In this document: positions 975-26,500 of the stretch, one piece after another
How the letters are laid out: each line of letters starts with the position of its first letter
Position numbering within the stretch: position 1 is the stretch's first letter
Virus record (IMG/VR): IMGVR_UViG_3300032323_001239
Coordinates: 1-53,620 of that record
DNA from: a virus
Lineage: Duplodnaviria > Caudoviricetes
Direction: 5' to 3' (one strand)
Length of the DNA stretch: 53,620 bases
The notes under the pieces: model-generated
The model's database searches: none
Told to the model about the DNA's origin: nothing
Seen by the model: only the letters and a program-made list of their open reading frames with translations
Program-made: the position numbers and the translations under genes

Positions 975-3900
975 ATGGCAGATAATTTAATCACTACCAA
1001 CATTACCGCCAACGCAGACTTCACGAGTTTAAGAACTCAGCTGGCTGGGGTTACTGCCCAACTCGTAAAACTGCAAGAAACAACGGCGGGAACTAACGCC
1101 AAGCTTGCAAATCAAATTGCAGTAATGAATAAGTCCTTCGCAGAAACTATGCGATCAACAGGACAGTTTTCATCACACTTTGTATCGCTCACGTCAGACG
1201 TAGAAAAATTTGGTAAGAACCTAGATAGAGGAAGACTTAAGCTAGGAGAGTACTACAATGCCTGGAGTGGGCATACAAGGAGAACAAGTACATTAATTAA
1301 AGACCTTGCTAAACAGCAGGTTATGCTTGAACAAGCAATAGTTCAGCCCGTTGGTAAAAACGCACAGGGCTTGATGCAATACAACGTAATGGTTGCAAAG
1401 GGATTAGATGAAGTAAAGAATAAGACAGCTATTGCAAGACAAGAGCTAGCCATCATGAACAAGGTTATGCTAGATGGATCTAATCAGCTTATTAACTGGG
1501 GTAAGAATACTCAGTGGGCTGGTCGTCAGTTAACAGTTGGCCTAACTGTACCACTAGCAGCATTTGGCATGGCTGCACAAAAAGCTTTTAGAGAAGCAGA
1601 CGAAGAATTAGTTAGATTAACAAAGGTTTATGGAGGATTGACTGCTGTATCCGCAGCAGAATTGGCCAAGGTTAGAAAAGATGTTTCAGCAACCGCAAAA
1701 GAAATTGCTGGATCATATGGTCTTGCTTTTAAAGATACAATAGCACTAGCAGCAGATTTAGCAGCAACAGGACAAGAAGGAAACGATCTTTTAAATGCAA
1801 CAAGAGAAACATCAAGACTTTCAGTACTTGGAGAAATTGATAGACAAGAAGCAATCAAAGCAACCCTTGCTATTCAAAATGCTTTTAAAGAAAATACAGA
1901 TCAGCTTGCAGAGTCTATTAACTTTCTTAACGCAGTTGAAAACCAGACATCTACCACCCTGCAAGATTTAGTTGAAGCAATTCCAAAAGCGGGTCCAGTA
2001 GTTAAGTCTTTGGGCGGAGATGTTCAAGATCTAGCTTTATATCTTACTGCTATGAAAGAAGGCGGAGTAAACGCATCAGAAGGCGCTAACGCAATCAAGT
2101 CAGCAATGGCATCAATGATTAACCCTACAAAGGTTGCAAAAGAACTATTTTTTGGATTTGGAATTGATTTAGATAAAATTGTAACTTCTAATGCAGGTAA
2201 TTTAACACAAACTATTTTAGACCTTCAGTCAGCCCTAGATACCCTAGATCCTCTAAGTAAATCAAGAGCAATTGAACAATTGTTTGGTAAGTTTCAGTAT
2301 GCAAGACTTTCAGCACTCTTTGAAAATATAGGAAAAGAGGGATCTCAAACTGTAAGAGTTATGGAATTAATGGGAGCAACCTCAGCAGAGCTTGCAGGAA
2401 TTGCTGAACGAGAATTATCTATGATAACCGAGTCGGCTTCTGGAAAATTTAAAAGAGCCATGGCATCAGTTCAAGCAGATCTTGCAGGAGTTGGAGAGCA
2501 GTTTTTAAAAATTAGCACAAAGGTTTTAGAAGTAGTAAGCGGAATAATTAAGTTTTTCCAAGGACTTCCAGGACCAGTTAAAACATTTCTAAATGCACTT
2601 GGTGGATTGACTGCATTTGCGGGACCACTAATTATGTTAACTGGTGTTATGGCCAACTTTATTGGTTATGTTACCAAGGGAATTTTTTCTTTAAGACAAA
2701 TGGCTACAGGAGGAAAAGGGTTTAAACTACTTACTCCAGAAATATTAGCAGCAGACGCTGCTGCAAAGGGATTAAGCACAACGTTTTACAGCGACGCAGA
2801 AGCTACTGTTGTTTTAACAAACGCAGTCAATACTCTTGCTGCATCTTTTGATAGTCTTGAAATGAAAGCAAATGCAGCTAAGGTTGCGGTTCAGCCAGGA
2901 ATTGCTACAATAGCTGGCAATGTAATTGCTTCGGGAAACCCAACTGGAAGAATAGTTGATAAAAACAATCCGTTAATTGGAGACCCATACTCAAGGGATA
3001 TGTCTCATATGATCCCTGCTGGAAGTCCTCAAATGGGAACTATATTTGGAACAGTTCCAGGAGCGGGTCCAGTAAACGTTAGAGTTGGAAAAAATCCACA
3101 GGCGTATATGGACACAGATTTGCCAAAAATTCCAGGCGTTACTTCTGTCAATGGAATTTCAACAGGAATTGTTTCTCAAGAAGCAGCTAAATGGCATGCA
3201 ATGACAGCAGCAATAGCAATGCAGTCAGAGGCAGAAATTAAATTATTAAAAACAGAAGTAATGGCAACTGGAACAATTACATCAAGCCTGTCTGATTCTT
3301 ATCAAGCCCTACTTCCAGAATTTTCAGAAATCACAAGTATGGCCGCACAGGAAACAGCTTTAATTGTTAAGCAGCTACAACAAAGTAAATTAACAGCAGA
3401 TGAAGCAAGACTTAAAGTAATCCAATTAAATGCAACAGTTGAAGCAATGCTTGCTGAAACAGCTCAGAAGATTGCAGCTGGACAAGGAAGAACTGTAAAC
3501 CTAACAACAGTTCCATTAACATCTCAGCCTGTAGTAGACCCAGCTACTGGAAAATCAAATATGAAAGAAATGTTCCACAAGGGCTCTACAAAAGAAATAG
3601 CGGACAGAATTGCAAGAGCTTTAGGTGGAGTTAGAACATCTGGCGCAGGATATAATATTCAAACAACAAAGCCTAAATTTAATAAGGGCGGAATAGTTCC
3701 AGGTACAGGTAATACAGACACCTACCATACAATGGCAGAACCTGAATCATTTGTAATCAACAAGGCTTCAACAGAAAGAAATATGCCAACAATTAGCAAA
3801 CTACTTGGCGGCACACCAACGTTTAGAAATACTGGAGGAATGGTTCCAGTAGTTTTAACTCCTGGAGAAGCAGTCATCCCAGCAAAAATTGCTAAGCGTA

Positions 3901-6900
3901 ATCCAGAATTAATGTTGCAGCTAAATGGAGGCCCAGGAAACACTACTGGCATGGGAAGAAATAAGGGCGGTAAGGGTAAAGCTACAAAAGCAGAACTAGA
4001 TGATGCAGCCAAAAAACTTCTTGCTAAAGCCTTAAAGGTAGATCAAAGAATGTTTGATTCGCCAAATTGGGAACAAGAAGTTAGACTAAGACACATAATG
4101 CATGATGCTGGTGTATATAATAGCTATGCAGGTTTTGACGAACAAACAGCAATCAATATGGCAATAGAAGATTACGATACAGCCTGGGCAAACTCTATTA
4201 AAAAAGACGGGCATCTAGACATGAAAAAGTGGATGCAAGAAAGAATGCGTATTGCAAGATCAAGAGATTCACAAGTAAGAAGAATGATAAGGCTAGAGAT
4301 TGATTCAAAGGAAGGCCCTAGAGCTGGATTTACTCAATATAAAGCTTTCCAGAAGTACCGTGGTCAAAGCGGTGAAAGATTTAGACCAACAAGTAATTTG
4401 ATTGGTGAATTTAGAGCAAGAGCTAACGAATTTGGCGGAATTGGTTTGTTTGATAGTACATCAGACAAGCTATTTAAAAATGGCATAGAAGGAACTGTAT
4501 CAGAGCATACAGCAAGAAGATCATTATGGAGAGACACAAGAGGCAAAGTGTTTAGTCTTGCTGGAAATCTTGGAATGGCTATGCTTGGCGAAAAGGAAAT
4601 TAATCAGCTTACTAACGAGTTAAACAGAGGCACTCGTGGTGTTGTTCCAGACATGCTCACAATGACAAATAAGGGCGTTGATCTTAAAAGAGCATGGAAT
4701 GCTAAAAAAGGAATTGGTTCAAATAAAGCAGAAGCTATTGCATTCTTAAAGAGAGCAATGCAAGGGTTGGTAGATAGAAGATCGGGATTTAGACCAAACA
4801 ACACAATGTTTGCTCATGCAGGATTCAATGAGGGTGGACAGATCCCAGGTCAATTTGCACAAAAACTATTTGGCGGAGGAAGAGCAATGTTCCTTGGAAT
4901 GCCTAGAACTATTAAGCAGGTAGAAGCTCAAAGAGCAGCAAGAGCATCTATGGAAAAAGCAAGCCAAGCAGTTAAGGATTCTAGATTTAGCAAAACTCCA
5001 GTAACTGATTACGATGAGCTTATAGAGCCAACCTCTGGAAGAAGTTTTCCAGTTTCTGGAATTGGTGGAGTATACAATAAAAACGGAGAAAAAGTTTTTG
5101 TTAAGCCAGTCCTCGATGAAAAGGCAGCGCTTGCTGAAATAAGAGCAACTCAAATCGCTCGTGAAGTTCATGGCTTGCAAACACCTGATCAAAGAATTGT
5201 AGTTATGAGGGACCCAACTGATCCAAAGGGTTCCAGAACATTGCTAGCATTAGAATCTAAATATAATCCTGCTATTGCAAATCAAGACGGCAAGTTTAAT
5301 GAAGATCAATATTTTAGACAGCTAGTTGCATCTGCATTACGTGGAGACAAGGATTTAGGAAGAGGTAATCTTTCAGGAAATATTCTTGCAGATGTTGGTA
5401 CAGCTGGAGTATTTGCAACAGCCTCTGGCCCAAGAGATTACTCTGCAACAATTCCTTCATTTAAGCATCAAGCAATGGTTAATTTAATGGGAGTAAAGGG
5501 AAGTGGAGCAAAGAAGTTTTTTGCCGAATCTACCGTAGATATTCCGATGGGCATGACTGCTGATCAATATAATGATCGCATGCTTGACGAGATTAATAGG
5601 GCCTTGCCTAAGTTAAAACAAACTATTTCAAGGTTTCCTGATTTAACTTCAGAAGAAAAGTCTATTTATAATGCAATGATTGCAAGACTAGAAGATGCAA
5701 GAAGGAAAACATATGGAGACCTTCATGGAATACACTCATCATTAAAAATAGCGCCAGAAAAGACTATGACTCCAGCTGCTATTGCTAAAATGATTGCTGC
5801 GGATGAACTTAAGCGCAGACAGCGTGGTCACTCTGTTAGCCTTTCAGACAATAGTTTTAAAACTGAAGCAAATGGATTTAACATCGGAGGAATGATTGGA
5901 AATGTTCTTAAGGGTAGAGCAATGCACAGAATTGGTGCAGGCTTTGGTCCAACAGGTGCTCCTAAGCCAAGCATGTACGAGTCAGCTCCATGGGGAGTTA
6001 ATTCATTATCAATTGAAATGGCAGAAAAGTTATTTGCAAGTAGTGGATTAAGAAAAAATACTCAAAAGCATTTGTACGATAAGTTTGCTGCCGCATTAGC
6101 AAAAGAAAAGCCTTACGGTTATGTTAAAGATGCAAAGGGATCTTTGAAGAATGCACTTGAGCCACATATTTTAGACTCAGTAATAAGATCAGCAGCTTCC
6201 GACCTTATTTCTGATAGAAATGTATCTAAGCAGTTGTCTCCTATAGACAGAGACATATTAAAGAAAAAGTATTTAAACTGGGATTCTAAAAAAGATACTC
6301 CATTGACAGAGTCTTTAAAGCAAATTATATTTGGATTAGAAAAAAGAGAAATGGGCGGACCAGTTAATGCTGGACAGCCATACATTGTAGGAGAAAAGGG
6401 TCCAGAAATATTTGTTCCTAAAAACGCAGGAGGCATTGTTCCAAACGGATACATGGATGGCGGTAGCGTTAAAAATGGATACATGAAGGGCGGCATGGTT
6501 GCTATGGCTGCAGCTTCGTTAGTTCCAATGGTTCTTTCTAGTAAAATTGCTAATCCTTTGCTTCAAACAATAATGCAGACACTTTCATTTATCATACCTC
6601 AAATGATGATGACAGCAATGATGCAGACAAAGGTTGAAGGCAGCCAAGGGCGAGTTGGAAGATTAATGTCTAAGATTCCAGACAGCGCAAAAACTCCTAT
6701 GTTTTCTACAGCACGAGGAACAGACGGAAAAATTTTAAGCGCTTATGGAGCAGGTCTTCAAAATGCTGCTAAAAACGGAAACTTATTGACAAGAACACTT
6801 GCAAGAGTTGGAATGGGTATTACAAGATTAAATGTTGGACTTGCCGTAGCAACTGGAGCTTTTATTGCTATTAATAAAAGAATAAGAGATCACAATGAGC

Positions 6901-9206
6901 ATTTAAGAATTGGCGTTACTCAATACGGACTAACAGAAGAGGCTGCTAAAAAAGCAGGACTTAAGTTTACTGATTACAATTCAAAGCTTGCAGATACTGT
7001 AAAAAGCATAGAAGCAATAAGAGAAAGAAATCAATTCTTGTTTGAAAGCTTGCAGGATGCTGGCTTGCCTATATCCATGACAATTGAAGAGTATAAGAAG
7101 CTTAAAAAAGAAGTTAAGGAAGTCTATACAGACCAAATTAAACTAATTAATCAGTCTAAAGAAAGTGAATTGCCACAGGTAGCAATAGATATTAAGACTG
7201 CGCTAATGGCTGCTGGAATGTCAGCAGATGACGCAAGTAAAAAAATATTTGCAATGTTTAAGCTTTCTGAAAAGGGAGAAAAGGCTGGTGCATTTACTGT
7301 AGGTAATCGTGCATTTAGAAACATTAGGACAGGACAAGATGCAGCAGTAGCTGCAATAAATACTTACACAACCGCTTCAGATGGACGTGAAAAAGCACAG
7401 GCAGTCAATACAGGTCTAACAGCTATCGACGCTGGAATTATAGATATGATTGAACAAAGTAAAAAAGCTGCAAGAGCAGACAAGACAGGCAACACACAAG
7501 TATTAACTCAGTATCAAGCACAGGAAGCAATGCTTAAGAAACTAAATCAGCTAGAGTCTTCTAAGGCTGTCTTAACCGCAAAAACTAGAGCAGAAATGAT
7601 TAAGCAAAATCCAGAACTTAAAAAAATTATCAACCCATTAGATACAGTTGTTAGCTTATTTGAAAAAATGAATCTTGCAGCAAAAGGATTTACTGGAGAC
7701 CTTTCAAAGTTGGGTGCAGAAGCAGTAAGCACACTTTCTAGAATTGCTGATTCAGTTTCTGAATCAACCATTACGGCAAATAAGGTTGGAATACTAGAAA
7801 AAAATTATGCCCTTCTAGGAAGATTAACGGCTCAGCAAAAGATTCTTGCAGCTGCAGCTAGAGGACAGAGTGCTCAGCAACAAATAAATACTAGAGAGCA
7901 ACTAAAGGGTTTACAAAAACAAATAGATGCAAATAATAAACTTGCAGAGGCAAGACTAAAAGCCCTAGATGCAGCAAAGCAAGAGGGAGACATTGCAAGA
8001 CAAATCGCTAAAGCGCAAGCTGCATACGAGGCTGCTTTGGCAACAGGCAATACCGCTGCTGCACAACAGGCAAGCCTAGACATTCAGGGTCTGCAATCAG
8101 ATCAACAGTATAACGCTCAAAAGAAAGCAATTGAAGATGCCCTTAAGCTAGCTAATGCTCCTCTCGAGGCTAAGATAAAGTTAATTAATGATGGCCAGCA
8201 AAAGCTTAGCGACAACGCAAGCATTGCTGCAGAATCATTAAGTAAGTTAAATGAAAAAATTGCAAAAGAAAAACAAAAAATTGATGATGTTAATAAAGCA
8301 ATGACTACTCTAGCAATTAATGCAATTGCCGCAGGAATGACTCTTAAAGAATATCTAGGAACAGATGCTGGAAGGCAAGATTCTGCGGCTGTAGTGGGAA
8401 CTGTAAATACAGCAAGACCAGATACGGTTGTTAAGCCTCCATTGCAGTTAAGAAGATCTCCAAGGGTATCTACTCCAAGCGTAACAGACCAAGCTGCAGG
8501 ATTTATGGGTGGCGTAACGGGAGCTGTTGAAAAGGGGTTAGCCGCAAAAGGAATTACAGTGTCCGCAATGACTGGAGACATTATTATCAATGGCAAAAAA
8601 ATGGATGTAGGTCAGTCAAAAGCTACTGCTAAAATTGGATTTGTTCCTAAAACTCTTGGGGCAGAAGCTGGAGCCATGGCAGGAACTACTTTAGTTTCAC
8701 CAGTTGCATTAACGGCAGCAGGTGCTACACAGGTATCTGATGGAAAGCGAGGCTCTACCTGGGTTGGAGTTGAGTTCCTAGATAAAAATGGAAAAAAATG
8801 GAAAGTAACTTCTGATGCAGGAAGGACAGGGCAACTTAATGTTCAAGCAGTAAAGGCTGGATACGGTACCATGAAACTTAATCCAAAGGTTCCAACCATT
8901 GTTGGAGACCGTGGCCCAGAAATGGCATTTGGTGGAATGATTATTCCTAACATGGCTAAGGTTCCATATGCCTCTCCTAGATATGACGTTAAGCAAGCAG
9001 AAAAAATGTTTGAGCCAATGAGGAATTCAAGCGGAGGGCAGGGAGTAATAAACTATACTCAAGTAATTAATGCTTCTCCAGGAATGAATGAGGATCAATT
9101 AATAAGTAAAGCAAAGGTTGCAGCCTACGAATTCTTGCAGGCTAATATAAAAACTAATGCTAAAATGGTAGGAAACACAATGAATGTAGGTATTAAAAAG
9201 ACATGA
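975..9206 (+). CDS. Tape measure protein (TP901-like core) with internal cargo domains including a kinase-like fold
   Basis: 2743 aa, Ala-rich and helical, downstream of the chaperones. Contains TMP core motifs (ESINFLNAVENQT, AIEQLFGK) and GGPV..G..YIVGEKGPEIFVP-type motifs. Confidence 0.93.
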   Translation: MADNLITTNITANADFTSLRTQLAGVTAQLVKLQETTAGTNAKLANQIAVMNKSFAETMRSTGQFSSHFVSLTSDVEKFGKNLDRGRLKLGEYYNAWSGHTRRTSTLIKDLAKQQVMLEQAIVQPVGKNAQGLMQYNVMVAKGLDEVKNKTAIARQELAIMNKVMLDGSNQLINWGKNTQWAGRQLTVGLTVPLAAFGMAAQKAFREADEELVRLTKVYGGLTAVSAAELAKVRKDVSATAKEIAGSYGLAFKDTIALAADLAATGQEGNDLLNATRETSRLSVLGEIDRQEAIKATLAIQNAFKENTDQLAESINFLNAVENQTSTTLQDLVEAIPKAGPVVKSLGGDVQDLALYLTAMKEGGVNASEGANAIKSAMASMINPTKVAKELFFGFGIDLDKIVTSNAGNLTQTILDLQSALDTLDPLSKSRAIEQLFGKFQYARLSALFENIGKEGSQTVRVMELMGATSAELAGIAERELSMITESASGKFKRAMASVQADLAGVGEQFLKISTKVLEVVSGIIKFFQGLPGPVKTFLNALGGLTAFAGPLIMLTGVMANFIGYVTKGIFSLRQMATGGKGFKLLTPEILAADAAAKGLSTTFYSDAEATVVLTNAVNTLAASFDSLEMKANAAKVAVQPGIATIAGNVIASGNPTGRIVDKNNPLIGDPYSRDMSHMIPAGSPQMGTIFGTVPGAGPVNVRVGKNPQAYMDTDLPKIPGVTSVNGISTGIVSQEAAKWHAMTAAIAMQSEAEIKLLKTEVMATGTITSSLSDSYQALLPEFSEITSMAAQETALIVKQLQQSKLTADEARLKVIQLNATVEAMLAETAQKIAAGQGRTVNLTTVPLTSQPVVDPATGKSNMKEMFHKGSTKEIADRIARALGGVRTSGAGYNIQTTKPKFNKGGIVPGTGNTDTYHTMAEPESFVINKASTERNMPTISKLLGGTPTFRNTGGMVPVVLTPGEAVIPAKIAKRNPELMLQLNGGPGNTTGMGRNKGGKGKATKAELDDAAKKLLAKALKVDQRMFDSPNWEQEVRLRHIMHDAGVYNSYAGFDEQTAINMAIEDYDTAWANSIKKDGHLDMKKWMQERMRIARSRDSQVRRMIRLEIDSKEGPRAGFTQYKAFQKYRGQSGERFRPTSNLIGEFRARANEFGGIGLFDSTSDKLFKNGIEGTVSEHTARRSLWRDTRGKVFSLAGNLGMAMLGEKEINQLTNELNRGTRGVVPDMLTMTNKGVDLKRAWNAKKGIGSNKAEAIAFLKRAMQGLVDRRSGFRPNNTMFAHAGFNEGGQIPGQFAQKLFGGGRAMFLGMPRTIKQVEAQRAARASMEKASQAVKDSRFSKTPVTDYDELIEPTSGRSFPVSGIGGVYNKNGEKVFVKPVLDEKAALAEIRATQIAREVHGLQTPDQRIVVMRDPTDPKGSRTLLALESKYNPAIANQDGKFNEDQYFRQLVASALRGDKDLGRGNLSGNILADVGTAGVFATASGPRDYSATIPSFKHQAMVNLMGVKGSGAKKFFAESTVDIPMGMTADQYNDRMLDEINRALPKLKQTISRFPDLTSEEKSIYNAMIARLEDARRKTYGDLHGIHSSLKIAPEKTMTPAAIAKMIAADELKRRQRGHSVSLSDNSFKTEANGFNIGGMIGNVLKGRAMHRIGAGFGPTGAPKPSMYESAPWGVNSLSIEMAEKLFASSGLRKNTQKHLYDKFAAALAKEKPYGYVKDAKGSLKNALEPHILDSVIRSAASDLISDRNVSKQLSPIDRDILKKKYLNWDSKKDTPLTESLKQIIFGLEKREMGGPVNAGQPYIVGEKGPEIFVPKNAGGIVPNGYMDGGSVKNGYMKGGMVAMAAASLVPMVLSSKIANPLLQTIMQTLSFIIPQMMMTAMMQTKVEGSQGRVGRLMSKIPDSAKTPMFSTARGTDGKILSAYGAGLQNAAKNGNLLTRTLARVGMGITRLNVGLAVATGAFIAINKRIRDHNEHLRIGVTQYGLTEEAAKKAGLKFTDYNSKLADTVKSIEAIRERNQFLFESLQDAGLPISMTIEEYKKLKKEVKEVYTDQIKLINQSKESELPQVAIDIKTALMAAGMSADDASKKIFAMFKLSEKGEKAGAFTVGNRAFRNIRTGQDAAVAAINTYTTASDGREKAQAVNTGLTAIDAGIIDMIEQSKKAARADKTGNTQVLTQYQAQEAMLKKLNQLESSKAVLTAKTRAEMIKQNPELKKIINPLDTVVSLFEKMNLAAKGFTGDLSKLGAEAVSTLSRIADSVSESTITANKVGILEKNYALLGRLTAQQKILAAAARGQSAQQQINTREQLKGLQKQIDANNKLAEARLKALDAAKQEGDIARQIAKAQAAYEAALATGNTAAAQQASLDIQGLQSDQQYNAQKKAIEDALKLANAPLEAKIKLINDGQQKLSDNASIAAESLSKLNEKIAKEKQKIDDVNKAMTTLAINAIAAGMTLKEYLGTDAGRQDSAAVVGTVNTARPDTVVKPPLQLRRSPRVSTPSVTDQAAGFMGGVTGAVEKGLAAKGITVSAMTGDIIINGKKMDVGQSKATAKIGFVPKTLGAEAGAMAGTTLVSPVALTAAGATQVSDGKRGSTWVGVEFLDKNGKKWKVTSDAGRTGQLNVQAVKAGYGTMKLNPKVPTIVGDRGPEMAFGGMIIPNMAKVPYASPRYDVKQAEKMFEPMRNSSGGQGVINYTQVINASPGMNEDQLISKAKVAAYEFLQANIKTNAKMVGNTMNVGIKKT

Positions 9207-13090: not shown

Positions 13091-13438
13091 ATGAGTAATA
13101 TTAAAAAGCCAGCGTCATCTACAGCAACAATAAAAAAGCTTTTGCTTGCTCCTGGCGACCCATTAATCAAAACTCTTAAGCCAGACTATTATGTTATTGT
13201 TGATCCAGACAAGCTTACAAGAATTTCGGATCCTACGGGTGAGGATCCAGCAGAAGATCCAGATGATCCGCAAGATCCGCCTGTAGAGGAATTAAAATCT
13301 CCATCTTTATCTGACATTACCCTTGTAAGCAAAACTTTAGTTACAGATAAGAATAAAAATCAGTATGTTGAATTTGTGTTTAATATTAAAAACAGTGGCG
13401 GAGAAACAGTAGTGGGGGCAGAAGTATATGGACAATAA
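13091..13438 (+). CDS. Putative minor tail protein
   Basis: Tail operon context; leaderless promoter upstream. Confidence 0.55.
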   Translation: MSNIKKPASSTATIKKLLLAPGDPLIKTLKPDYYVIVDPDKLTRISDPTGEDPAEDPDDPQDPPVEELKSPSLSDITLVSKTLVTDKNKNQYVEFVFNIKNSGGETVVGAEVYGQ

Positions 13439-14414
13439 TATAAACTTAGTTGGAGAATATGTTTTTTATGAAGACGATAAAGAAGTTTATCGTAGTAAAA
13501 ATCTATTGACTAAATTTGGCAAAAGATTTCTAACTCAGTTCTTAGCTGGTCAATCTAATACTAATGAAAAAGATATTGCTATCGGTATTGGTGGCGGATC
13601 AACAGAATCAGATATTGCAGCAGGTCGCACAGCGGCCTCCATAAACGATACACAATTAAGATTTGAATTTTATAGATCTCCTGTTTCTATGAACAGCATT
13701 GATATTCAAACCAGCCAGACTACTGGGCTTAGCACATACGGAGTAGTGCATAAAACAACAATACCAGTGGATATAGCTGGAGTAATTAGCGAGGTAGGAA
13801 TTTTCCCAGGGATATCTTTATCTAGTACAGACTACGCAAGCAATTCGATTTCTACTTTTGAAGATAACCAAAGCTGGATAGATTCAGAAGGAGAGTATCC
13901 AGATATTGTAACAACTCCTACTCCTAGAATTGGAACCTACTATTTACCCATAACTTCAGCTCTCGGTTCAAAGGAATACTTTAATAATTTTAATATAGAT
14001 ATATCTGGATACAGTGCGCTAGATAGTTTAACGATTGCATATCGTCAAAGTGATTTAAATTTAGATTATGTTTTTGTTAGAATGTATGACTCAAATGATA
14101 ACTATTATGAAATAAGATATGCTGGAGATTTATCAATAGGAGATAAGATTAAGTCGTTAACCCTAAACAATCTTTATAGTAGTGGTTACGGATCAGGATC
14201 TCCAGATCAATCTTCTATTGTTAAAATCGGAGTTGGCGTAAAAGCAAAGTCTTCAGGTGCAGCTACTGTACTATTTGATGGGCTTAGAATTAACGACGAA
14301 GACGCATTTAGAACAGACTACGGTCTTATTAGCAGATCTGTTTTGTCTAATCCAATTGTAAAAACACTAGGAAAGCAAATGATTATTGAATATAGAATTG
14401 GATTAAATTTCTAA
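13428..14414 (+). CDS. Putative baseplate / minor tail protein
   Basis: N..TKFGKRFL, IAIGIG, DTQL.FE and ISEVGIF motifs typical of tail-collar/baseplate proteins. Confidence 0.6.
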   Translation: MDNNINLVGEYVFYEDDKEVYRSKNLLTKFGKRFLTQFLAGQSNTNEKDIAIGIGGGSTESDIAAGRTAASINDTQLRFEFYRSPVSMNSIDIQTSQTTGLSTYGVVHKTTIPVDIAGVISEVGIFPGISLSSTDYASNSISTFEDNQSWIDSEGEYPDIVTTPTPRIGTYYLPITSALGSKEYFNNFNIDISGYSALDSLTIAYRQSDLNLDYVFVRMYDSNDNYYEIRYAGDLSIGDKIKSLTLNNLYSSGYGSGSPDQSSIVKIGVGVKAKSSGAATVLFDGLRINDEDAFRTDYGLISRSVLSNPIVKTLGKQMIIEYRIGLNF

Positions 14415-17341
14415 TGACTAGGTTGTATGGCAATATGCATGACGGAGGCGGAGAACTACCTCCAGATTTAGAAATATCTGCAGCCGCCGCAGCAGCATCT
14501 GCCGCAAAAGGTTCTAAAGATTCTTATACAAAAACAGTAAGGCTTCCTGTTGTTAAAAATAAAATCTACAGATTTTGGGCTACATACTTACACGAAGACA
14601 AAGAAACAAAAAAAATAACAGAGAGCGATAGATCTCCTGTATTTAAAACAACCTTTGACATTCCAAACTTAACTAAGCCTGTAAAAAACTTAACCTTAAC
14701 TGCAGGATCTCAGTCATACGGAGTTAAATTTGATTTAGATGCTGAAAGCGTACAAGAAGATGTTGTTATATTTGAAAGCCTTACAAGTAATTTTGCTACA
14801 CAAAATATTGTTTATGTAGGAACATCTACAAATGTTACAATACTTACAACAGGGCCAAACGCATTTGCAAACCGATGGGTAAAGGTTAGGTCTAGAGATA
14901 GATGGGATGACTTAAATATATCAGAGGCCACGGCTGGTCCCATAAAGCCTTTTACTGCAGATGTTGATACTACATTTACAGTTGAAAATCCAGGTAGCTC
15001 TTCTGCGGTTGCCTCTATTGATCCAAAAGATTTGAGTGGGTTTAGTCTAGTTTCAACAATCAGTTGGGTGCAATCTACAAATGTTAAAACGGCTGGGTAT
15101 GCGATAAGATGGTCAACAGATAACCCTTCAACAGTAACTAACCCATTATGGGAATACGCATCCGTAAGCGGAATAGCAACAACTTCTTTTACCGCAACAG
15201 GATTAATACCAAATACAACATACTATTATCAGGTTGCATCAACAACACCTTATGACGTTGTTAATTGGACTGGTGCGGCAAGCGGAACATTTATTGCTTC
15301 AGACGCAGATGGAACAGCGGCAGGCGCATTAGCAAGACTTAGATCTTTTATAGCAATAGGTGGAGCATCACAAGATTTATTTAAAATAGGAACAGGCATT
15401 ACACAGGGAATAAATTTAAGCACAGATCCAATTGTAAGTCCTACTTTAACACAAGGCACCTATCACGGAATTGTATTAAACAAGTCTACAACAAATGTTG
15501 GAAATAACTTTTGGCTTACTACTGGACAATTTAGAGTTGGTAATCCAACAGAATTTATGTATTGGAATGGAACAAACCTATTCTTAACTGGAAGTGTTAA
15601 TGCTACAGGTGGGAAGTTCACTGGCAACGTCCAGCTTGCGGTTCCATCTGGGGCCTCTACAAGTGGCACACTGTATGCTGGATTAAATCCAACATCTGGT
15701 CCAAGAGTAAGGTTTAGCAGCGAAGGAATATTTGCATACGACTCGACAAGCACAAGCAACGAAACAGGACAAACGTTTTCTTTAGTTCAATCGACTGGCA
15801 GACTAAATGCAAACCTAGGCACAGTCGGAGGATGGTCGTTAGACACAACAGGATTTTCATCAACTAATACCAAAATAGAAAGTAATGGAACCATAACTCT
15901 AGGCGACACAACGGGAACTCTAGGGTCTATTGTAAGGTTGAGTGCAACAGATAATTTTAGATTATGGATCGGATCCCAGAGTTCCTCTGCTGCACGAGAT
16001 AATTATTTTGCTGTTAGTAGAGAAGGAATTCTTTATGCAAAGGGCGCAATAATTAGTGGAAATGCTTCATTTAGCGGAACTTTAACTGTTGGAACTCAGT
16101 TGTCAGATGGAACAACAATTGATTCAGTTAAGTTAAATGCGTTAAAGGGAATTACGGATGCTAGTGCCGCAGCAAATGCAGCGGCACTAGCAAAAGCAAG
16201 AGGAGATCAAGCTTATAATGAAGCAATTGCAGCGGGACAAACCGCTACAGCTGCTGCAAATGCTGCACAAGCAGCAAGTGAAGCAGTTACATTAAGACTA
16301 ACATCAGAGCAAGTTGCCGCTGTTTTAGTTGCTGATACTACAATAATTAATGGAAGTACTATTACAACGGGCACCATTAATCTTGCACGTTTAAATATTA
16401 CTGGCGGCACCGCAGGATTCAATGGATTTGTTGTAGATGGAAATGGTATCAGGGCAACAAGCGGAGGAAGTCAAACATTAAATATTTCTTCAAATGGAAC
16501 TATTTCTTTAGGAGATCCTACAAATGGATGGACAGTAGACAATCAATATATACGGTCTAGAAGTTTTTTTACATCAGGATATTCAAGACTTGTTTTAGAC
16601 GGATGGAATGGAACAATTGAAGGTGGAAGAATTACTGCCTCAAGGTTTGAAGCAAATACAATTACTGGTGGAACAATAACTGGTTCTAGAATTCAAACAA
16701 GTACATCTGGAAATAGAGTTGAGTTAATCGATGCAACAAATGATTCTTTAAGAGTTTTAGTAGGTGGTAGCACAAAAGGACACCTGCTAGGCTGGGGAAC
16801 AGCTACAACTGGCGGATTAATAATGCATCAAGGCTCTACTGCAAACCCCGACGCAACCTCTGGTGTTGTTAAGGTTCAGCCAGGATACGCAATGTTAGCA
16901 GCTACTTCTACTAACTATGTTGAAGTTGGCGGAGCAGGAGGTATTTATTTACGCACCCCAGCAACAACTAATAATGGTCTACTTGCCACCATAAACTCTA
17001 CTACAGGTACTGCAAATATGAGATATACCGCAAGCGAGATATTCTTTATTTCATCAACGAGGGATTCAAAAACAAATATACAAGATATTTCATTTGACGA
17101 TTCTTTGGTTAAACAAATAAGACCAAGAATGTTTCAGGGTAAAGTAGACTTAGAGCGAGGAGACACAAACTACAATCTGGGACTAATCGCAGAGGAGCTA
17201 GCAGAAATAGAAGGACTAGATCTATTAGTAGATAAAGATAAGGATAACAACGTAGTCGGTGTAAACTATGACAGACTACCAGTTTTAATTATAGATGTAT
17301 TAAAAAGAGTGTTGGATAGGCTTGACGCCCTAGAGGCATAA
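14414..17341 (+). CDS. Tail fibre/spike with FN3-like domains and a C-terminal intramolecular chaperone (peptidase S74-like)
   Basis: FN3 signature TGLIPNTTYYYQV and Gly/Thr-rich beta repeats. The C-terminus reads SSTRDSKTNI...LGLIAEE...VNYDRL, followed by a coiled coil. Confidence 0.8.
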   Translation: MTRLYGNMHDGGGELPPDLEISAAAAAASAAKGSKDSYTKTVRLPVVKNKIYRFWATYLHEDKETKKITESDRSPVFKTTFDIPNLTKPVKNLTLTAGSQSYGVKFDLDAESVQEDVVIFESLTSNFATQNIVYVGTSTNVTILTTGPNAFANRWVKVRSRDRWDDLNISEATAGPIKPFTADVDTTFTVENPGSSSAVASIDPKDLSGFSLVSTISWVQSTNVKTAGYAIRWSTDNPSTVTNPLWEYASVSGIATTSFTATGLIPNTTYYYQVASTTPYDVVNWTGAASGTFIASDADGTAAGALARLRSFIAIGGASQDLFKIGTGITQGINLSTDPIVSPTLTQGTYHGIVLNKSTTNVGNNFWLTTGQFRVGNPTEFMYWNGTNLFLTGSVNATGGKFTGNVQLAVPSGASTSGTLYAGLNPTSGPRVRFSSEGIFAYDSTSTSNETGQTFSLVQSTGRLNANLGTVGGWSLDTTGFSSTNTKIESNGTITLGDTTGTLGSIVRLSATDNFRLWIGSQSSSAARDNYFAVSREGILYAKGAIISGNASFSGTLTVGTQLSDGTTIDSVKLNALKGITDASAAANAAALAKARGDQAYNEAIAAGQTATAAANAAQAASEAVTLRLTSEQVAAVLVADTTIINGSTITTGTINLARLNITGGTAGFNGFVVDGNGIRATSGGSQTLNISSNGTISLGDPTNGWTVDNQYIRSRSFFTSGYSRLVLDGWNGTIEGGRITASRFEANTITGGTITGSRIQTSTSGNRVELIDATNDSLRVLVGGSTKGHLLGWGTATTGGLIMHQGSTANPDATSGVVKVQPGYAMLAATSTNYVEVGGAGGIYLRTPATTNNGLLATINSTTGTANMRYTASEIFFISSTRDSKTNIQDISFDDSLVKQIRPRMFQGKVDLERGDTNYNLGLIAEELAEIEGLDLLVDKDKDNNVVGVNYDRLPVLIIDVLKRVLDRLDALEA

Positions 17342-23316: not shown

Positions 23317-23523
23317 ATGATTTCATACGACATACCAGACCCATTTGAAACTTTTGTTTCCAATAAGTATAAAAATTATGTAGGGGCAGTGTATGATTTT
23401 TTTGCCAGGGAATGGCATATGAAGTGTGGGTGTTGCAAAGAAGATTTATATGCACCAACTAAAAAGATTATGACAAAGGTTAGACTTTATCATACTAGAA
23501 ATGAATGCTGCGGGGGTTATTAA
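23317..23523 (+). CDS. Hypothetical Cys-rich protein
   Basis: ATG 7 nt after the TAGAAT box; CGCC and H..C residues. Confidence 0.6.
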   Translation: MISYDIPDPFETFVSNKYKNYVGAVYDFFAREWHMKCGCCKEDLYAPTKKIMTKVRLYHTRNECCGGY

Positions 23524-26500
23524 TGAGCTTTACACATTTACATGTTCATTCTTACTACTCTTTGATGGACGGATTAAATTCTCCGCTTGAGCTTGTTCAA
23601 GCAGCAAAAGCAGCAGGACAAACAGCAATTGCTATTACTGATCACGGAACATTGTCTTCGCATCGTGAAATGCAAATAGCTTGTAGGGAAGAAGGCATTA
23701 AGCCGATCCTTGGAGTAGAAGCGTATATCTCGCCAACAGATAGATTTGATCGCTCCTCTAAAACAGATAAATCAATTCAGGCGTATAATCATATTATCCT
23801 TCTTGCCAAGAATAAGAAGGGCCTAGAAAATATAAATATTTTACAGGAATTAGCATGGAATGAAGGCTTTTATCATAAGCCACGTATTGATAGAGAGGTA
23901 TTGAGTTTATATGCGGAAGGTATTATCGTTCTTTCTGGATGTCTTAATGGACTTATTAGTAAGTGCATTGAACGCCAGGAATTCTCGGAAGCAAAGCTTT
24001 TACTCAAAGATTTTAAAAAAACTTTTGGCGAAGACTTTTACATTGAGGTCCAGTCTCATAACCCACAAGAAACAAACTCGAAACTATTAGAATTAGCAGA
24101 TGAACTAAACATTAAGGCGGTAGCGACAGGCGACGCACACTTTGCTAAGGAAGAAGATCGTGTCCTAGAAGAAGCAATGCTTATATTATCAACGTCTCCA
24201 AAGATGGATAAAGATGCAGACTTCGATATGTCTAGAAACATTAAGGATATTAATGATAGATTAAACTATTTATATCCAGATAGAAGAATATCATTTCAGG
24301 ACTATAATTTATTTATTCAAACTCGTGAGGAAATTCAAGCTGATTTCGTAAAGGCTGGAATAAACAGAACTGATATTTATGAAAATACAATCGAGATTGC
24401 TAATAAGGTAGGCTCATACGACTTTAATCAGGGTCTAGACCTTCTGCCAGTACCTAAAACAGATGCCGATGAAAGACTAAGGGAGCTATCTGAAAAGGGC
24501 TTAGAGAGGCTTCAGAAGGCTTCAGATCCAATTTATAGAGAGCGTATCGAAGAAGAGTTATCTGTTATTGCATCAAAAAACTTTGCCTCATATTTCTTGG
24601 TTGTAGCAGATATGATTAACTGGGCTAAAGATAATGATATTCGTGTCGGTCCTGGTCGTGGATCCGCAGCAGGTTCATTGGTTTGCTACGCCCTTGGAAT
24701 TACAGACGTAGATCCAATTAAATATGATTTACTTTTCTTTAGATTTATTAACCCAGAACGAAATGACTTTCCTGATATTGATACGGATTTTGAAGACCGT
24801 CGAAGAAAAGAAGTTAAAGATTATTTAAAGAAGAAGTTTAAACACGTTGCATCTATTTCTACATACACTTATTTTAAAGACAAGGGTGTTGTTAGAGATG
24901 CGGCTCGTGTATTTATGGTTCCCCTTTCAGACGTTAATCGTGCAATGAAGTCTATTGACACCTTTGAAGATTTTATTGAATCTCCAAACACTAAAGAGTT
25001 TAGAACTAAGTATCCTGAAGTTGTTTGGTTAGCCGAAAGACTACGTGGCCGCATTCGTTCAGTTGGAGTACATGCTGCTGGTGTGGTCGTTGCCAAAGAT
25101 GATCTTAGAAAATTTGCTCCAGTGGAGTCTAGAGAAGATGCACAGGATAAGGTATCAGGAAGAATTCCAGTCGTCGCATACGACATGGATACGGTTGCGG
25201 ATATAGGTCTTATTAAACTAGATGCACTAGGACTTAAGACCTTATCTGTAATGTCTGACACACTTAAGTCTATTAAATCAAGAACCAATAAGGATATTAA
25301 TCTGTCTGATATCACAATGGATGACCCAAAGGTTTACAAAATGCTTAGCGATGGTTACACAAAAGGCGTGTTCCAAGCTGAAGCAACGCCATACACTAAT
25401 CTTCTTATCAAGATGGGTGTAGACAAGTTTGAAGATCTTGCTGCATCAAACGCATTAGTTCGTCCAGGCGCAATGAATACTGTCGGTGCTTCATACATTA
25501 AACGTAAGCACGGAGATGAAGCAGTTCAGTTTATTCATCCAATTATGAAGCCTTTTACTGAGAATACATACGGTGTTATTATATATCAAGAGCAGGTTAT
25601 GCAGGCATGCGTACACCTGGGCGGCATGACTTGGTCAGAGGCTGATAAGGTCCGCAAGATTATTGGAAAGAAGAAAGATGCAAAAGAGTTCGACCAGTTC
25701 AAAGATCGTTTTATTGATGGGGCTTCAAAACACATTTCTAAGAAACAAGCAGAGACACTCTGGCAAACATTTGAGGCGCATGCTGGGTATTCGTTTAATC
25801 GTTCCCACGCTGTTGCTTACTCTATGTTATATTACTATGCTGCTTGGCTCAAAACTTATTACCCTCTGGAGTTCATGTTCTCGATTCTTAAGAACGAAAA
25901 CGACAAAGACGCAAGAACCGAATATTTAATTGAAGCCAAGAGATTAGGCCTTCGTGTATCTCTTCCTCACATTAACGAGTCGGATATATATTTCTCTTTG
26001 CAAAAAGATAGAATTGTATTTGGTTTAGCTGAAGTTAAATTTATTTCTGATAGCATTGCTAATAAGATTATTGATCAAAGACCGTTTACAAGCTATGCAG
26101 ATTTTATAGAAAAATCTTCTAAAAAGGGAAGCGGAATTAATAGCCGTGCAATCGCTGCGTTAAATGCAATTGGTGGTGCGGCATTTGACGATAACCCTAG
26201 AAGCGGTAATGAAAAAGATAATTATTATGAGTATCTAGGAATTCCTACTTTTAATCTAGAAGGAATACCTCCAAGAATTAAAGCACAAGCAAGGCCAATC
26301 GAAGACTTTGAAGACCTAGGTTCCTTTGTAATGTTTGGTATGGTTAAGTCAATCAAGCGTGGCAATGGCTGGGCTAGAGTCGAATTAGTAGATGAAACTG
26401 GATCAATTGGTTTGTTCCATAACGAGCAGACTCAGATTGAAACAAACCAGATGTATTTTATTTTAGTTGGAGATAATAGAATTGCTAGATATATTAAGGT

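Follow-up and report, generated by a model that had tools for sequence, protein, structure and literature searches.

Proteolytic processing of a tape measure protein (TMP) has been mapped in phage T5, in which pb2 is cut after R1127 during tail morphogenesis to give pb2* and pb2C, at a site between a hydrophobic stretch and the enzymatic part and with a product of 92 residues (Linares et al. 2023, PMC10038345). pb2C remains part of the particle, and the authors propose that infection drives it out into the periplasm; they also tie an H-x-x-E motif of the module to muralytic activity (PMC10038345). In phage lambda, gpH is converted to gpH* and gpHC by cutting off about 14 kDa in a glycine-rich C-terminal region (PMC12617516; PMC10721106), for which the exact cut site and the protease are described as not established (PMC12617516). 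Enzymes are also carried in virion polypeptides. Thermus phage P23-45 has a 5,002-aa TMP, gp96, fused to a working virion RNA polymerase (PMC10770324), and the polyvalent proteins of phages and conjugative elements combine several effector-type domains, including protein kinases, in one virion-associated polypeptide, for which polypeptide processing and recombinational variability were predicted (Iyer et al. 2017, PMC5512222). In addition, Sle1-type TMP-related effectors have been described for actinobacterial contractile injection systems (Nagakubo et al. 2026, PMC13277306).

Here, we analysed a 53,620-nucleotide window from a virus of the Caudoviricetes (IMG/VR record IMGVR_UViG_3300032323_001239). 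The product of its open reading frame at 975-9206, annotated initially as a TMP, is a genuine giant siphophage TMP, as borne out by PhageMin_Tail (Pfam E 1e-28), by matches to PHROG TMP families (best phrog_10030, E 1.2e-120, aa 38-848 of the TMP) and by tail-tip genes 3' of the gene. Its middle third (aa 881-1840) is expanded by three inserts and the joints between them, and the layout is as follows.

975..9206, plus strand: TMP gene, a single ORF of 2743 aa
975..3614, plus strand: conserved N-terminal TMP core, aa 1-880 (Pfam, PHROG, alignment of relatives)
1689..2288, plus strand: PhageMin_Tail within the core, aa 239-438 (Pfam)
2583..2672, plus strand: hydrophobic segment 1 within the core, aa 537-566 (Kyte-Doolittle peak of at least 1.5)
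3615..3971, plus strand: joint block 1, aa 881-999, with RALGG, FNKGG and a long module, RNTGG and the VVLTPGEAVIP module, and RNKGG
3972..4832, plus strand: insert A, aa 1000-1286, hypervariable cassette (conservation trough, DNA break points, AF2)
4824..4895, plus strand: joint 2, aa 1284-1307, FNEGGQIPGQFAQKLFGGG, GG 1287-1288 invariant in 113/113 relatives, 3' break point of cassette A
4896..5831, plus strand: insert B, aa 1308-1619, predicted protein-kinase-like, CtkA/HipA-like (AF2, Foldseek, residues)
5877..5891, plus strand: joint 3, FNIGG, aa 1635-1639, F1635 and GG invariant in 113/113
5892..6344, plus strand: insert C, aa 1640-1790, strongly conserved (majority fraction 0.84-0.98 across 113 relatives)
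6345..6494, plus strand: joint block 4, aa 1791-1840, with the REMGG-PVNAGQPYIVGEKGPEIFVP module, AGGIVP, YMDGG and YMKGG
6495..6872, plus strand: hydrophobic segments 2 (aa 1841-1859) and 3 (aa 1948-1966), separated by a variable stretch (Kyte-Doolittle >= 1.5 at the peaks)
8898..8936, plus strand: degenerate C-terminal module IVGDRGPEMAFGG, aa 2642-2654, about 100 aa from the end

The N-terminal core has a majority-residue fraction of 0.79-0.97 across the 113 relatives, and its closest cultured relatives are TMPs of Streptomyces and Gordonia phages (33-34% identity). Between hydrophobic segments 2 and 3, conservation is 0.43-0.50 in the same relatives; DNA homology is gone from about nt 6445 and is back at nt 6811-6889 in 11 of 19 related loci, while eight of the 19 have no further DNA match within nt 7000. 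The individual joint motifs are these.

nt 3615, plus strand: RALGG, aa 881, extra copy absent from the initial annotation
nt 3678, plus strand: FNKGG, aa 902
nt 3825, plus strand: RNTGG, aa 951
nt 3957, plus strand: RNKGG, aa 995
nt 4824, plus strand: FNEGG, aa 1284
nt about 4869, plus strand: LFGGG, aa 1298-1302
nt 5877, plus strand: FNIGG, aa 1635
nt 6345, plus strand: REMGG, aa 1791
nt 6450, plus strand: YMDGG, aa 1826
nt 6480, plus strand: YMKGG, aa 1836

All motif copies reported by the initial annotation are present where it placed them, as are the longer modules that it quoted (GGIVPGTGNTD...ESFVI, VVLTPGEAVIP and GGPVNAGQPYIVGEKGPEIFVP) and a degenerate IVGDRGPE near the C-terminus, which we located at aa 2642-2649 (nt 8898-8921). 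The joints are kept far more strictly than expected by chance or from their surroundings. Counted as [FYR]-x-x-GG, the motif occurs nine times in the TMP against 2.05 expected (sd 1.41) from 5000 composition-preserving shuffles, about 0.0002 of which reach nine, and all 9/9 copies lie within aa 881-1840 (about 970 of 2743 residues). It is extremely improbable that the motif is a functionless compositional product of a glycine-rich stretch: although glycine is more abundant in the middle region (10.5%) than in the protein as a whole (8.9%), and plain GG pairs show no overall enrichment (24 found where 21.9 are expected), a chance origin is contradicted by shuffles of the middle region alone (nine copies against 1.37 expected, reached in 0/5000) and by the GG pairs at aa 884, 905, 954, 998, 1287, 1638, 1794 and 1839, which are invariant in 113/113 aligned relatives even though two of them border a stretch of 27-44% conservation. 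The YMDGG copy is present in only 9/113 relatives. A module HMM made from the relatives matches joint block 1 at aa 943-981 (i-E 2.6e-9), PHROGs 30701 and 1538 match joint block 4, and the similarity to TMPs of four distinct phages (six GenBank records) is limited to the latter block. In the models of inserts A and B the joints are predicted to be disordered (pLDDT < 50).

The TMP is modular and exchangeable in architecture, and insert A is a true swapped cassette with recombination break points at the joints. Across the 113 relatives, conservation drops to 0.27-0.44 in this stretch only, a sharp trough at aa 991-1290. Insert A falls into 10 sequence classes; classes 7 and 8 have no detectable relationship to any other (hhalign probability <= 1.2%). 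In P0018-P0023, aa 1-990 are 96-97% identical and inserts B and C 89-92%, against 29% for insert A. DNA homology ends at nt 3943-3973 and returns at nt 4820-4845 in 19/19 related contigs. The breaks lie at RNKGG and FNEGG in both protein and DNA, and the phylogeny of the insert is uncoupled from that of its flanks. Hence, the suggestion that the GG motifs are recombination junctions, with segments exchanged between conserved flanks, holds for the first segment but fails for B and C among close relatives, both being collinear and 0.8-0.98 conserved in all 113; the modular, exchangeable architecture proposed initially stands, without exchange of B and C at this distance. The charged segments had also been judged non-ruler-like, and for A and B this agrees with the AF2 models, in which insert A is a globular helical domain (pLDDT 71.8) with a folded part of about 260 residues and insert B a predicted kinase (pLDDT 87.0).

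For insert A, no PDB fold matched with E < 0.98 and family and fold searches found no enzyme-family signature; of the cargo families guessed initially, ADP-ribosyltransferases and nucleases were detected in no cassette. Cassette A might therefore not be an effector at all, and we tentatively allow that it contacts a host inner-membrane entry factor or is the target of a TMP-binding defence, its exchange reflecting host switching or immune escape. The variable TMP region of lambda-like phages correlates with ManYZ dependence, and the SNIPE nuclease binds TMPs, with escape mutations in the TMP (PMC13190303); the uncoupled phylogeny would also fit. A folded domain of about 260 residues next to a kinase that requires the cytoplasm, between hydrophobic segments, speaks against such a role, which is nevertheless compatible with, and not exclusive of, delivery of the inserts as considered below.

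The AF2 model of insert B (pTM 0.81) folds like an atypical protein kinase of the CtkA/HipA kind, and the insert retains every catalytic residue of such an enzyme, for which activity is predicted. The kinase is thereby the only cargo guess confirmed, by fold. Among the PDB matches listed by Foldseek, the best are CtkA of H. pylori (3akl/3akk; E 4.7e-5) and the toxin-antitoxin protein HipA (4pu5; 1.3e-3), both with probability 0.98-1.00, followed by eukaryotic-type kinases; the 50 matches listed do not include CotH. Insert B shares with CtkA and HipA the catalytic-loop pattern D-x4-N followed by D-x-G, and the conserved residues are K1377 (29/30), E1388 (31/32), D1458 (38/39), D1460 (37/39), N1465 (38/39) and D1473 (39/39). 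It differs from them in that identity is 10-15%, TM-scores to the solved structures are low (0.26-0.37), neither Pfam nor PDB gives a match by sequence, and sequence profiles connect it to no kinase family. In BFVD, the best viral look-alikes come from uncultured phages: one is a portal-fused protein and the other is annotated as a PI3/4-kinase. Judged by sequence matches, more than 150 giant-TMP clusters contain the predicted kinase (153 cluster representatives at E <= 1e-30). One open frame is maintained through the kinase in 19/19 related loci, which argues that the fusion itself is under selection.

For insert C, neither a PDB sequence search nor the Atlas gave a match. It occurs without the kinase in P0137, P0185, P0209 and P0264 and is missing from many kinase-bearing TMPs; in distant giant TMPs the two are independent of each other and differ in position. 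Other inserts in these proteins include OmpA, lysozyme, M23, HAD phosphatase, CHAP, LysM and primase-like domains, with modules on both sides of the OmpA insert in P0124. Within 90 aa of the kinase, 72/109 distant representatives carry a GE.V-type module core on the upstream side and 38/109 on the downstream side (background 10%), while strict h-x-x-GG downstream of the kinase is not enriched (24/109, equal to the 22% background).

By analogy with T5 and lambda, we infer that the TMP may be cut at its joints. In a local alignment with T5 pb2 aa 1127-1166, the R1791 joint scores 54 (shuffles 24.2 +/- 4.3, z 7.0, reached by 0/500), with R1791 falling on R1127 and T5 AEGG...Y..GE.G.E...P aligned with REMGG...Y..GE.G.E...P. 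This joint is homologous to the T5 cleavage site, and at the sequence level it is the sole one with significant similarity to it; m1, m2 and the C-terminal copy fall short of significance (z 0.2-1.5), the last of these (z 1.5) resembling in its position the module at the start of pb2C. The lambda gpH cut region contains FATGG...GEFVF, an aromatic-x-x-GG module followed by GE-FV, and joint block 1 has this pattern in common with gpH aa about 730-770, where pairwise similarity is weak (z 2.1, 26/500 shuffles reach it). Where T5 has its cut residue, the joints carry F, R, Y or L, which does not fit a single protease specificity.

The Gly-Gly modules could instead be structural, uncut joints, either flexible linkers or docking points to the tube lumen, hub or sister chains, with the inserts acting while tethered to a membrane-spanning TMP conduit. 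We regard this as possible but doubtful, given that the R1791 joint aligns residue by residue with a mapped cleavage site and that the matching glycine-rich part of lambda gpH is also cleaved (PMC12617516). It would account for the way the joints run on into longer conserved modules in which hydrophobic residues alternate (VVLTPGEAVIP, PYIVGEKGPEIFVP) and which resemble binding or beta elements and not bare cleavage sites, and for the selected single frame in all 19 loci; in addition, the domain searches of the TMP detected no protease, disorder is predicted in monomer models only, and the P23-45 RNA polymerase is described as active while TMP-fused (PMC10770324). A further alternative, that the inserts serve as assembly chaperones, regulators or a late-acting kinase in the cell that makes the virions and are excised at the joints no later than tail completion, never reaching the next host, would solve the fit of folded domains in the tail lumen and recalls that cleaved T5 and lambda pieces were assumed to be discarded until recent structures. 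It is improbable: those C-terminal pieces stay in the particle (PMC10038345, PMC12617516), and the inserts sit mid-ruler between two conserved ruler parts, so that their removal would split the chain into separate pieces.

We therefore favour, with a probability of roughly 55%, a TMP that serves as both tail ruler and delivery vehicle and is cut at the joints separating its inserts, the tail presumably delivering ready-made proteins along with the DNA. Given that the tail lumen cannot hold three folded domains of 30-35 kDa side by side, the TMP would be stored there unfolded and pushed out before the DNA. The flanking hydrophobic segments (aa 537-566 and aa 1841-1859) would enter the membrane, and the inserts would refold on the cytoplasmic side, where the kinase would find ATP. 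Cutting of some or all joints in tail maturation, as in T5 and lambda, would free the inserts, and early in infection the kinase might phosphorylate a host protein. Specificity for host or defence would reside in cassette A, and this would account for its exchange among otherwise near-identical phages.

Compared with T5 pb2, which has one site near the C-terminus, the TMP has eight or nine mid-protein joints bracketing inserts of 150-310 residues; cleavage is known for T5 and proposed here, and in this TMP a K replaces the H of the H-x-x-E motif of T5. Lambda gpH resembles it in the glycine-rich cut region with an aromatic-x-x-GG module, but is without inserted enzyme domains and only weakly similar pairwise to the TMP modules (z 2.1). 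P23-45 gp96 is likewise a giant TMP with an enzyme, one that has to work inside the host cytoplasm as infection begins, but this is an N-terminal RNA polymerase and not a mid-protein kinase, and the part of PMC10770324 cited here makes no mention of Gly-Gly joints or an exchanged cassette. Polyvalent proteins also join multiple effector-type domains, a kinase included, in one polypeptide. As described in the part of PMC5512222 cited, the main text of which does not use the phrase 'tape measure', their kinases are without the C-terminal lobe, whereas insert B has a helical C-lobe in its model, and the zincin-like metallopeptidase proposed to process them did not turn up in this TMP. Compared by description, Sle1-type effectors are cargo of a bacterial contractile nanomachine and not a phage tail ruler, but they share with this TMP a TMP-derived carrier with a modular domain, which in theirs varies by species and is experimentally swappable (PMC13277306).

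The long open reading frame at 975-9206 is assigned as the tape measure protein (TMP) because it matches PhageMin_Tail (PF10145) over aa 239-438 (E 1e-28, 101 bits against the Pfam cut-off of 33.2 bits), falls into PHROG TMP families and adjoins PHROG tail genes. Twelve PHROG families match it, the best being phrog_10030 (E 1.2e-120); 10 are annotated as TMP and the remaining two are phrog_4704 and phrog_30701, the latter annotated as function unknown. The TMP matches are mostly confined to the first ~850 residues, with phrog_167 extending to aa 1216. The gene sits in the tail module as expected, with small ORFs upstream and tail genes downstream. Tail assembly chaperones are expected directly upstream of a TMP gene; the two small ORFs found there match only function-unknown PHROGs (phrog_10504 and phrog_10474).

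304-636: small ORF directly 5' of the TMP gene
714-965: small ORF directly 5' of the TMP gene
975-9206 (+): TMP gene, single ORF, 2743 aa
9670-13071: tail protein by PHROG match
13428-14414: tail protein by PHROG match
14414-17341: tail protein by PHROG match

At 0.15 nm per residue, 2743 aa would correspond, by arithmetic only, to a tail of 411 nm; the ruler parts by themselves amount to ~1780 aa. The window (53.6 kb) is ~50% complete by CheckV estimate, and a DNA polymerase (23505-26792, 1,095 aa, phrog_405, E 0) lies ~14 kb further downstream than the tail genes; all other long ORFs of the window share its strand. Megablast against GenBank phages returned no close phage, the matches being limited to patches of 50-65 nt in TMP genes of Streptomyces phages. 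Over the N-terminal 880 aa, identity to Streptomyces and Gordonia phage TMPs is 33-34% (255 records, all <60%), and the TMP core (975-3614) is closest to TMPs of Streptomyces, Gordonia, Rhodococcus and Tsukamurella phages. The G+C content of the window is 36-45%, which would be unusual for phages of high-GC actinobacteria. We assign no host, because a search of prokaryote genomes (one per species) with six peptide patterns gave no close relative of the kinase-like domain described below.

The middle of the TMP carries short Gly-Gly motifs of the form [FYR]xxGG, here called joints (RALGG, FNKGG, RNTGG, RNKGG, FNEGG, FNIGG, REMGG, YMDGG and YMKGG), some of which are followed by a longer conserved stretch, or module. 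The initial annotation had described segments bracketed by such motifs; every copy that it listed was recovered at its position, and one further copy lies at aa 881. Nine copies are observed, compared with 2.05 +/- 1.41 in 5000 shuffles (~0.0002 of which reach 9). All of them fall within aa 881-1840, where the expectation is 1.37 and 0/5000 shuffles reach nine, and plain GG is unenriched in the protein as a whole (24 copies, with 21.9 expected). From 121 proteins gathered, the 113 relatives of 2600-3600 aa were aligned with MAFFT; GG is invariant (113/113) at aa 884, 905, 954, 998, 1287, 1638, 1794 and 1839. The shuffle statistics and this invariance exclude a chance origin of the motif and confirm the bracketed arrangement. 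The YMDGG copy is a local duplication, found in 9 of the 113 relatives. An HMM of the module, built from relatives and with the kinase's own GE-VFVKP stretch kept out of the seed set, finds one window joint only (aa 943-981).

Between the joints lie insert A (aa 1000-1286), insert B (aa 1308-1619) and insert C (aa 1640-1790). Relatives were collected by a word-indexed search with aa 880-1850, in which 8000 candidates were scored and at least 683 proteins were found at E <= 0.001; the best 120 of these are mostly 2,600-3,500 aa long and lie on contigs of up to 116 kb, and a phage of this lineage probably has a genome of ~105-115 kb. When the window TMP is compared with the best 120 by BLAST, 51 are collinear end to end and 30 are unalignable from aa 1000-1093 to aa 1268-1285. 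The majority-residue fraction among the 113 aligned relatives is 0.77-0.97 over aa 1-990, 0.27-0.44 over aa 991-1290 and 0.75-0.98 over aa 1291-1830. The trough is thus bounded exactly by the RNKGG and FNEGG joints. The expectation that segments between Gly-Gly motifs are exchanged while their flanks are kept hence holds for insert A, and aa 1291-1830, which include inserts B and C, are conserved.

Taken between the two invariant GG pairs and grouped by single linkage (>= 35% identity over >= 150 aa), the insert A sequences form 10 classes. According to hhalign, classes 0, 1, 2, 3 and 5 are mutually related (probability 86-99%), class 4 has a partial link to class 2 (88%) and, in the first 80 columns only, one to class 6 (90%), classes 6 and 9 are linked (97%), and classes 7 and 8 are unrelated to any other class (<= 1.2%). 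The homologous TMPs P0018-P0023 are 96-97% identical to the window TMP over aa 1-990, 89-92% over inserts B and C and 94% over the coiled coil, with 29% in insert A; another homologue, P0003, is 99% identical in insert A and 92% in the N-terminal part. These comparisons show that the history of insert A is uncoupled from that of its flanks. At the DNA level, similarity is lost at nt 3943-3973 and regained at nt 4820-4845 in 19/19 related IMG/VR loci. Diversity-generating retroelements combine a reverse transcriptase with a template repeat and limit variation to adenine-templated positions. Variation in insert A is unlike that pattern, being a wholesale replacement in which all DNA similarity is lost. 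A search for spare cassettes or joint repeats elsewhere in the window, which represents about half of the genome, gave chance-level matches only outside the TMP (tblastn with the 10 class representatives, blastn with both junctions).

Insert A is the extreme case of a generally mosaic TMP, given that the coiled-coil block also has two forms. This block (aa 1980-2440; 6912-8294) is, among close relatives, either ~93% or ~44% identical to that of the window, independently of the cassette A class, and makes up a second mosaic block in the gene. The C-terminal end of a TMP is expected to dock in the tail tip. Here, the C-terminal 160-330 aa are unalignable in ~40 of the best 120 relatives (including one truncated protein), conservation over aa 2461-2640 is 0.34-0.57, and in the C-terminal part (aa 2449-2743; 8319-9206) some relatives are 300-800 aa longer. 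Insert C is strongly conserved, with a majority fraction of up to 0.98 among the 113 relatives; a PDB-chain search gave chance-level matches only and the ESM Atlas no usable match.

Folded individually, inserts A and B are both predicted as globular domains (pLDDT 71.8 and 87.0), in keeping with the non-ruler-like segments originally proposed. The insert A model (45 sequences, pTM 0.72) is helical with a small hairpin. Foldseek found no match to this fold in the PDB (best E 0.98), the sequence has no Pfam or ESM Atlas match and chance-level matches only in a PDB-chain search, and Pfam returned nothing in three TMPs with other cassette classes. An HNH or His-Me finger nuclease was considered, since the alignment consensus has a conserved S-E-H with G-N after it and the model has the small hairpin and a helix. 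Neither Pfam, the PDB by Foldseek (E < 0.98) nor the Atlas gave a match to such a nuclease; apart from the S-E-H ... G-N pattern an HNH-like identity is unsupported, and we keep it as a lead only.

The insert B model (AF2, 40 sequences) is confident (pTM 0.81), with disorder only at its ends, which are the joints (aa 1280-1307 and 1620-1642). Foldseek against the PDB gave four matches at E <= 0.001, all of them Helicobacter pylori CtkA (best 4.7e-5), followed by HipA (1.3e-3) and then eukaryotic-type kinases, at low TM-scores to solved structures (0.27-0.37). The model points to a two-lobed kinase fold of the CtkA/HipA type. A Gly loop, beta-3 Lys, helix-C Glu, D-x4-N loop and D-x-G can all be recognized in the sequence and are conserved (G1365 30/30, K1377 29/30, E1388 31/32, D1458 38/39, D1460 37/39, N1465 38/39, D1473 39/39 and G1475 39/39); these we presume to be the catalytic residues, from the pattern and general kinase knowledge rather than structural superposition. 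Sequence profiles gave no match of insert B to a curated kinase family (HipA_C, PI3_PI4_kinase, Pkinase, CotH), the only Pfam family in the TMP at E <= 1 is PhageMin_Tail, besides DUF1664 (0.037), and neither the single sequence nor a 13-sequence profile matched a PDB sequence. The suggestion that a kinase is among the cargo segments is nevertheless borne out for insert B by the predicted fold and the conserved residues.

At E <= 1e-30, an exhaustive phmmer search with aa 881-1850 gave 153 cluster representatives; almost all of these are proteins of 2,000-4,400 aa that match via aa 1284-1600, and tblastn of the kinase had no match at E <= 1e-3 among 50,697 GenBank phage records. A search for stand-alone kinases of near length gave 15 proteins; 14 of these are probably fragments, because they lie on contigs <= 7 kb, and the 15 do not provide evidence of stand-alone forms. 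A false fusion through misassembly was rejected, given that one open frame runs through the kinase in 19/19 related loci on independent contigs (11 complete within the locus). In BFVD, the kinase model best matches a portal-fused protein and a protein annotated as PI3/4-kinase, both from uncultured phages. It also shows likeness to parts of proteins of uncultured phages named 'portal protein' (1,201 aa, A0A6J5S481) and 'head morphogenesis domain' protein (1,140 aa, A0A6J5N2Y3_2). Because of these likenesses to portal and head morphogenesis proteins, similar kinases may be fused to other virion proteins.

Modularity extends to distant giant TMPs. Among 148 representatives (P0122-P0269) the kinase position varies from ~180 to ~2,840. 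Insert C occurs without the kinase on the same N-terminal core (P0137, P0185, P0209, P0264), and the kinase occurs without insert C (for example P0133, P0136, P0236, P0239). In a scan of 14 diverse giant TMPs of 2,200-4,470 aa (P0124, P0136, P0149, P0224, P0269 and others), OmpA, Phage_lysozyme2, Peptidase_M23, HAD acid phosphatase, LysM and CHAP domains as well as a primase zinc finger, RepB_primase_C and RuvA_C occur in 1/14 each. Of the 109 representatives that share <60% identity with the window, 72 have a GE-x-V-type module core <= 90 aa upstream and 38 downstream of the kinase, where the background is 10%. For the strict h-x-x-GG form, enrichment over its 22% background is seen upstream (43/109) but not downstream (24/109). 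The OmpA insert of P0124 is both preceded and followed by such modules. A modular architecture with exchange at joints is hence established.

Matches of aa 876-1842 to cultured-phage TMPs are limited to aa ~1785-1832, in Roseobacter phages CRP-406 and CRP-701, cyanophage KBS-S-2A and Pseudoalteromonas phage C7; phrog_30701 and phrog_1538 match the same stretch. It includes R1791, the first residue of the REMGG joint, which is conserved in 112/113 relatives. We translated T5 pb2 from its GenBank record and aligned aa 1780-1830 locally with pb2 1100-1219. The score is 54, compared with 24.2 +/- 4.3 for 500 shuffles, none of which reach 54; R1791 aligns with T5 R1127, and GG, Y, GE, G, E and P are in register. 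To our knowledge, the T5 site is the only TMP cleavage site ever mapped. According to the main text of Linares et al. 2023 (PMC10038345), pb2 is cut after R1127. The alignment argues that the R1791 joint is homologous to the T5 maturation-site region, and this holds for one joint only: the others share just a short core with it and their T5 alignments are not significant (z 0.2-1.5). The metallopeptidase-like H-x-x-E motif after the site is absent (T5 GEHGTE, TMP GEKGPE). Lambda gpH is weakly similar (FATGG...GEFVF at aa ~733-765; z 2.1, reached by 26/500 shuffles), and the relevant passages of PMC12617516 describe cleavage as shown only for the T5 and lambda TMPs, with the precise cut site and catalyst of gpH not known. 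Pfam finds no protease domain in the TMP and no peptidase family in the TMP or three variants; the Peptidase_M23 seen in 1/14 distant giant TMPs is a cell-wall hydrolase family.

We suggest that the TMP may serve as both ruler and carrier, with its inserts held unfolded in the tail lumen and expelled ahead of the DNA, and that some joints would be cut during maturation. The kinase part, lying between hydrophobic segments at aa 537-566 and 1841-1859, would have to reach the cytoplasm, because a kinase needs ATP. Cassette A would be the host- or defence-specific part. Precedents for single steps are described for T5, whose authors also invoke refolding (PMC10038345), and for P23-45 gp96, reported as a TMP-borne enzyme that can act in the host when infection begins (PMC10770324). 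In its most general form the proposal is that the aromatic/basic-x-x-Gly-Gly joint is a general siphophage TMP maturation signal, used in T5 pb2 and lambda gpH and multiplied here, so that the ruler is cut at ~8 joints and proteins stored unfolded in the tail are fired ahead of the DNA, among them a ready-made kinase resembling HipA and an exchangeable cassette directed against the host or its defences. We give this a chance of roughly one in four. Cassette A could also be a specificity or escape determinant, for which the SNIPE work speaks, as it places TMP regions under selection from entry factors and TMP-binding defence (PMC13190303); this is compatible with a TMP that carries and releases its inserts. 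From the original interpretation of the TMP as a vehicle for swappable effectors, the modular architecture, the exchange of A at joints and the kinase fold stand, and inserts B and C turned out not to be exchanged among the 113 close relatives.

The giant TMPs form a large, environmentally widespread family that tblastn of the kinase does not find in the 50,697 GenBank phage records, and they combine a complete kinase-like enzyme with a cassette exchanged at fixed joints. If the joints are cut, they would provide a sequence rule for TMP maturation, and tails would deliver sets of proteins and not DNA alone. Fixed joints of this kind also point to a natural route for loading chosen protein domains into phage tails.

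TMPs are usually viewed as rulers, occasionally with a wall-degrading tip. A literature search, mostly without subscription journals and supplements, found no paper that describes a TMP with an internal kinase or exchange at Gly-Gly joints. Among published systems, the maturation of T5 pb2 and of lambda gpH comes closest, together with P23-45 gp96, the polyvalent proteins and the Sle1 effectors. The main text on polyvalent proteins (Iyer et al. 2017, PMC5512222) does not contain 'tape measure', and its kinases are described without a C-lobe. Polyvalent proteins are also predicted to be processed by a zincin-like metallopeptidase, of which no counterpart was found in the TMP. They join two or more conflict-type domains in a single virion-associated phage polypeptide. 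In the window TMP, itself a virion protein, the kinase-fold domain is the only one of a type listed there; the other two domains have no assigned function. The TMP-related effectors of the Sle1 type, as presented in PMC13277306, likewise have a swappable domain.
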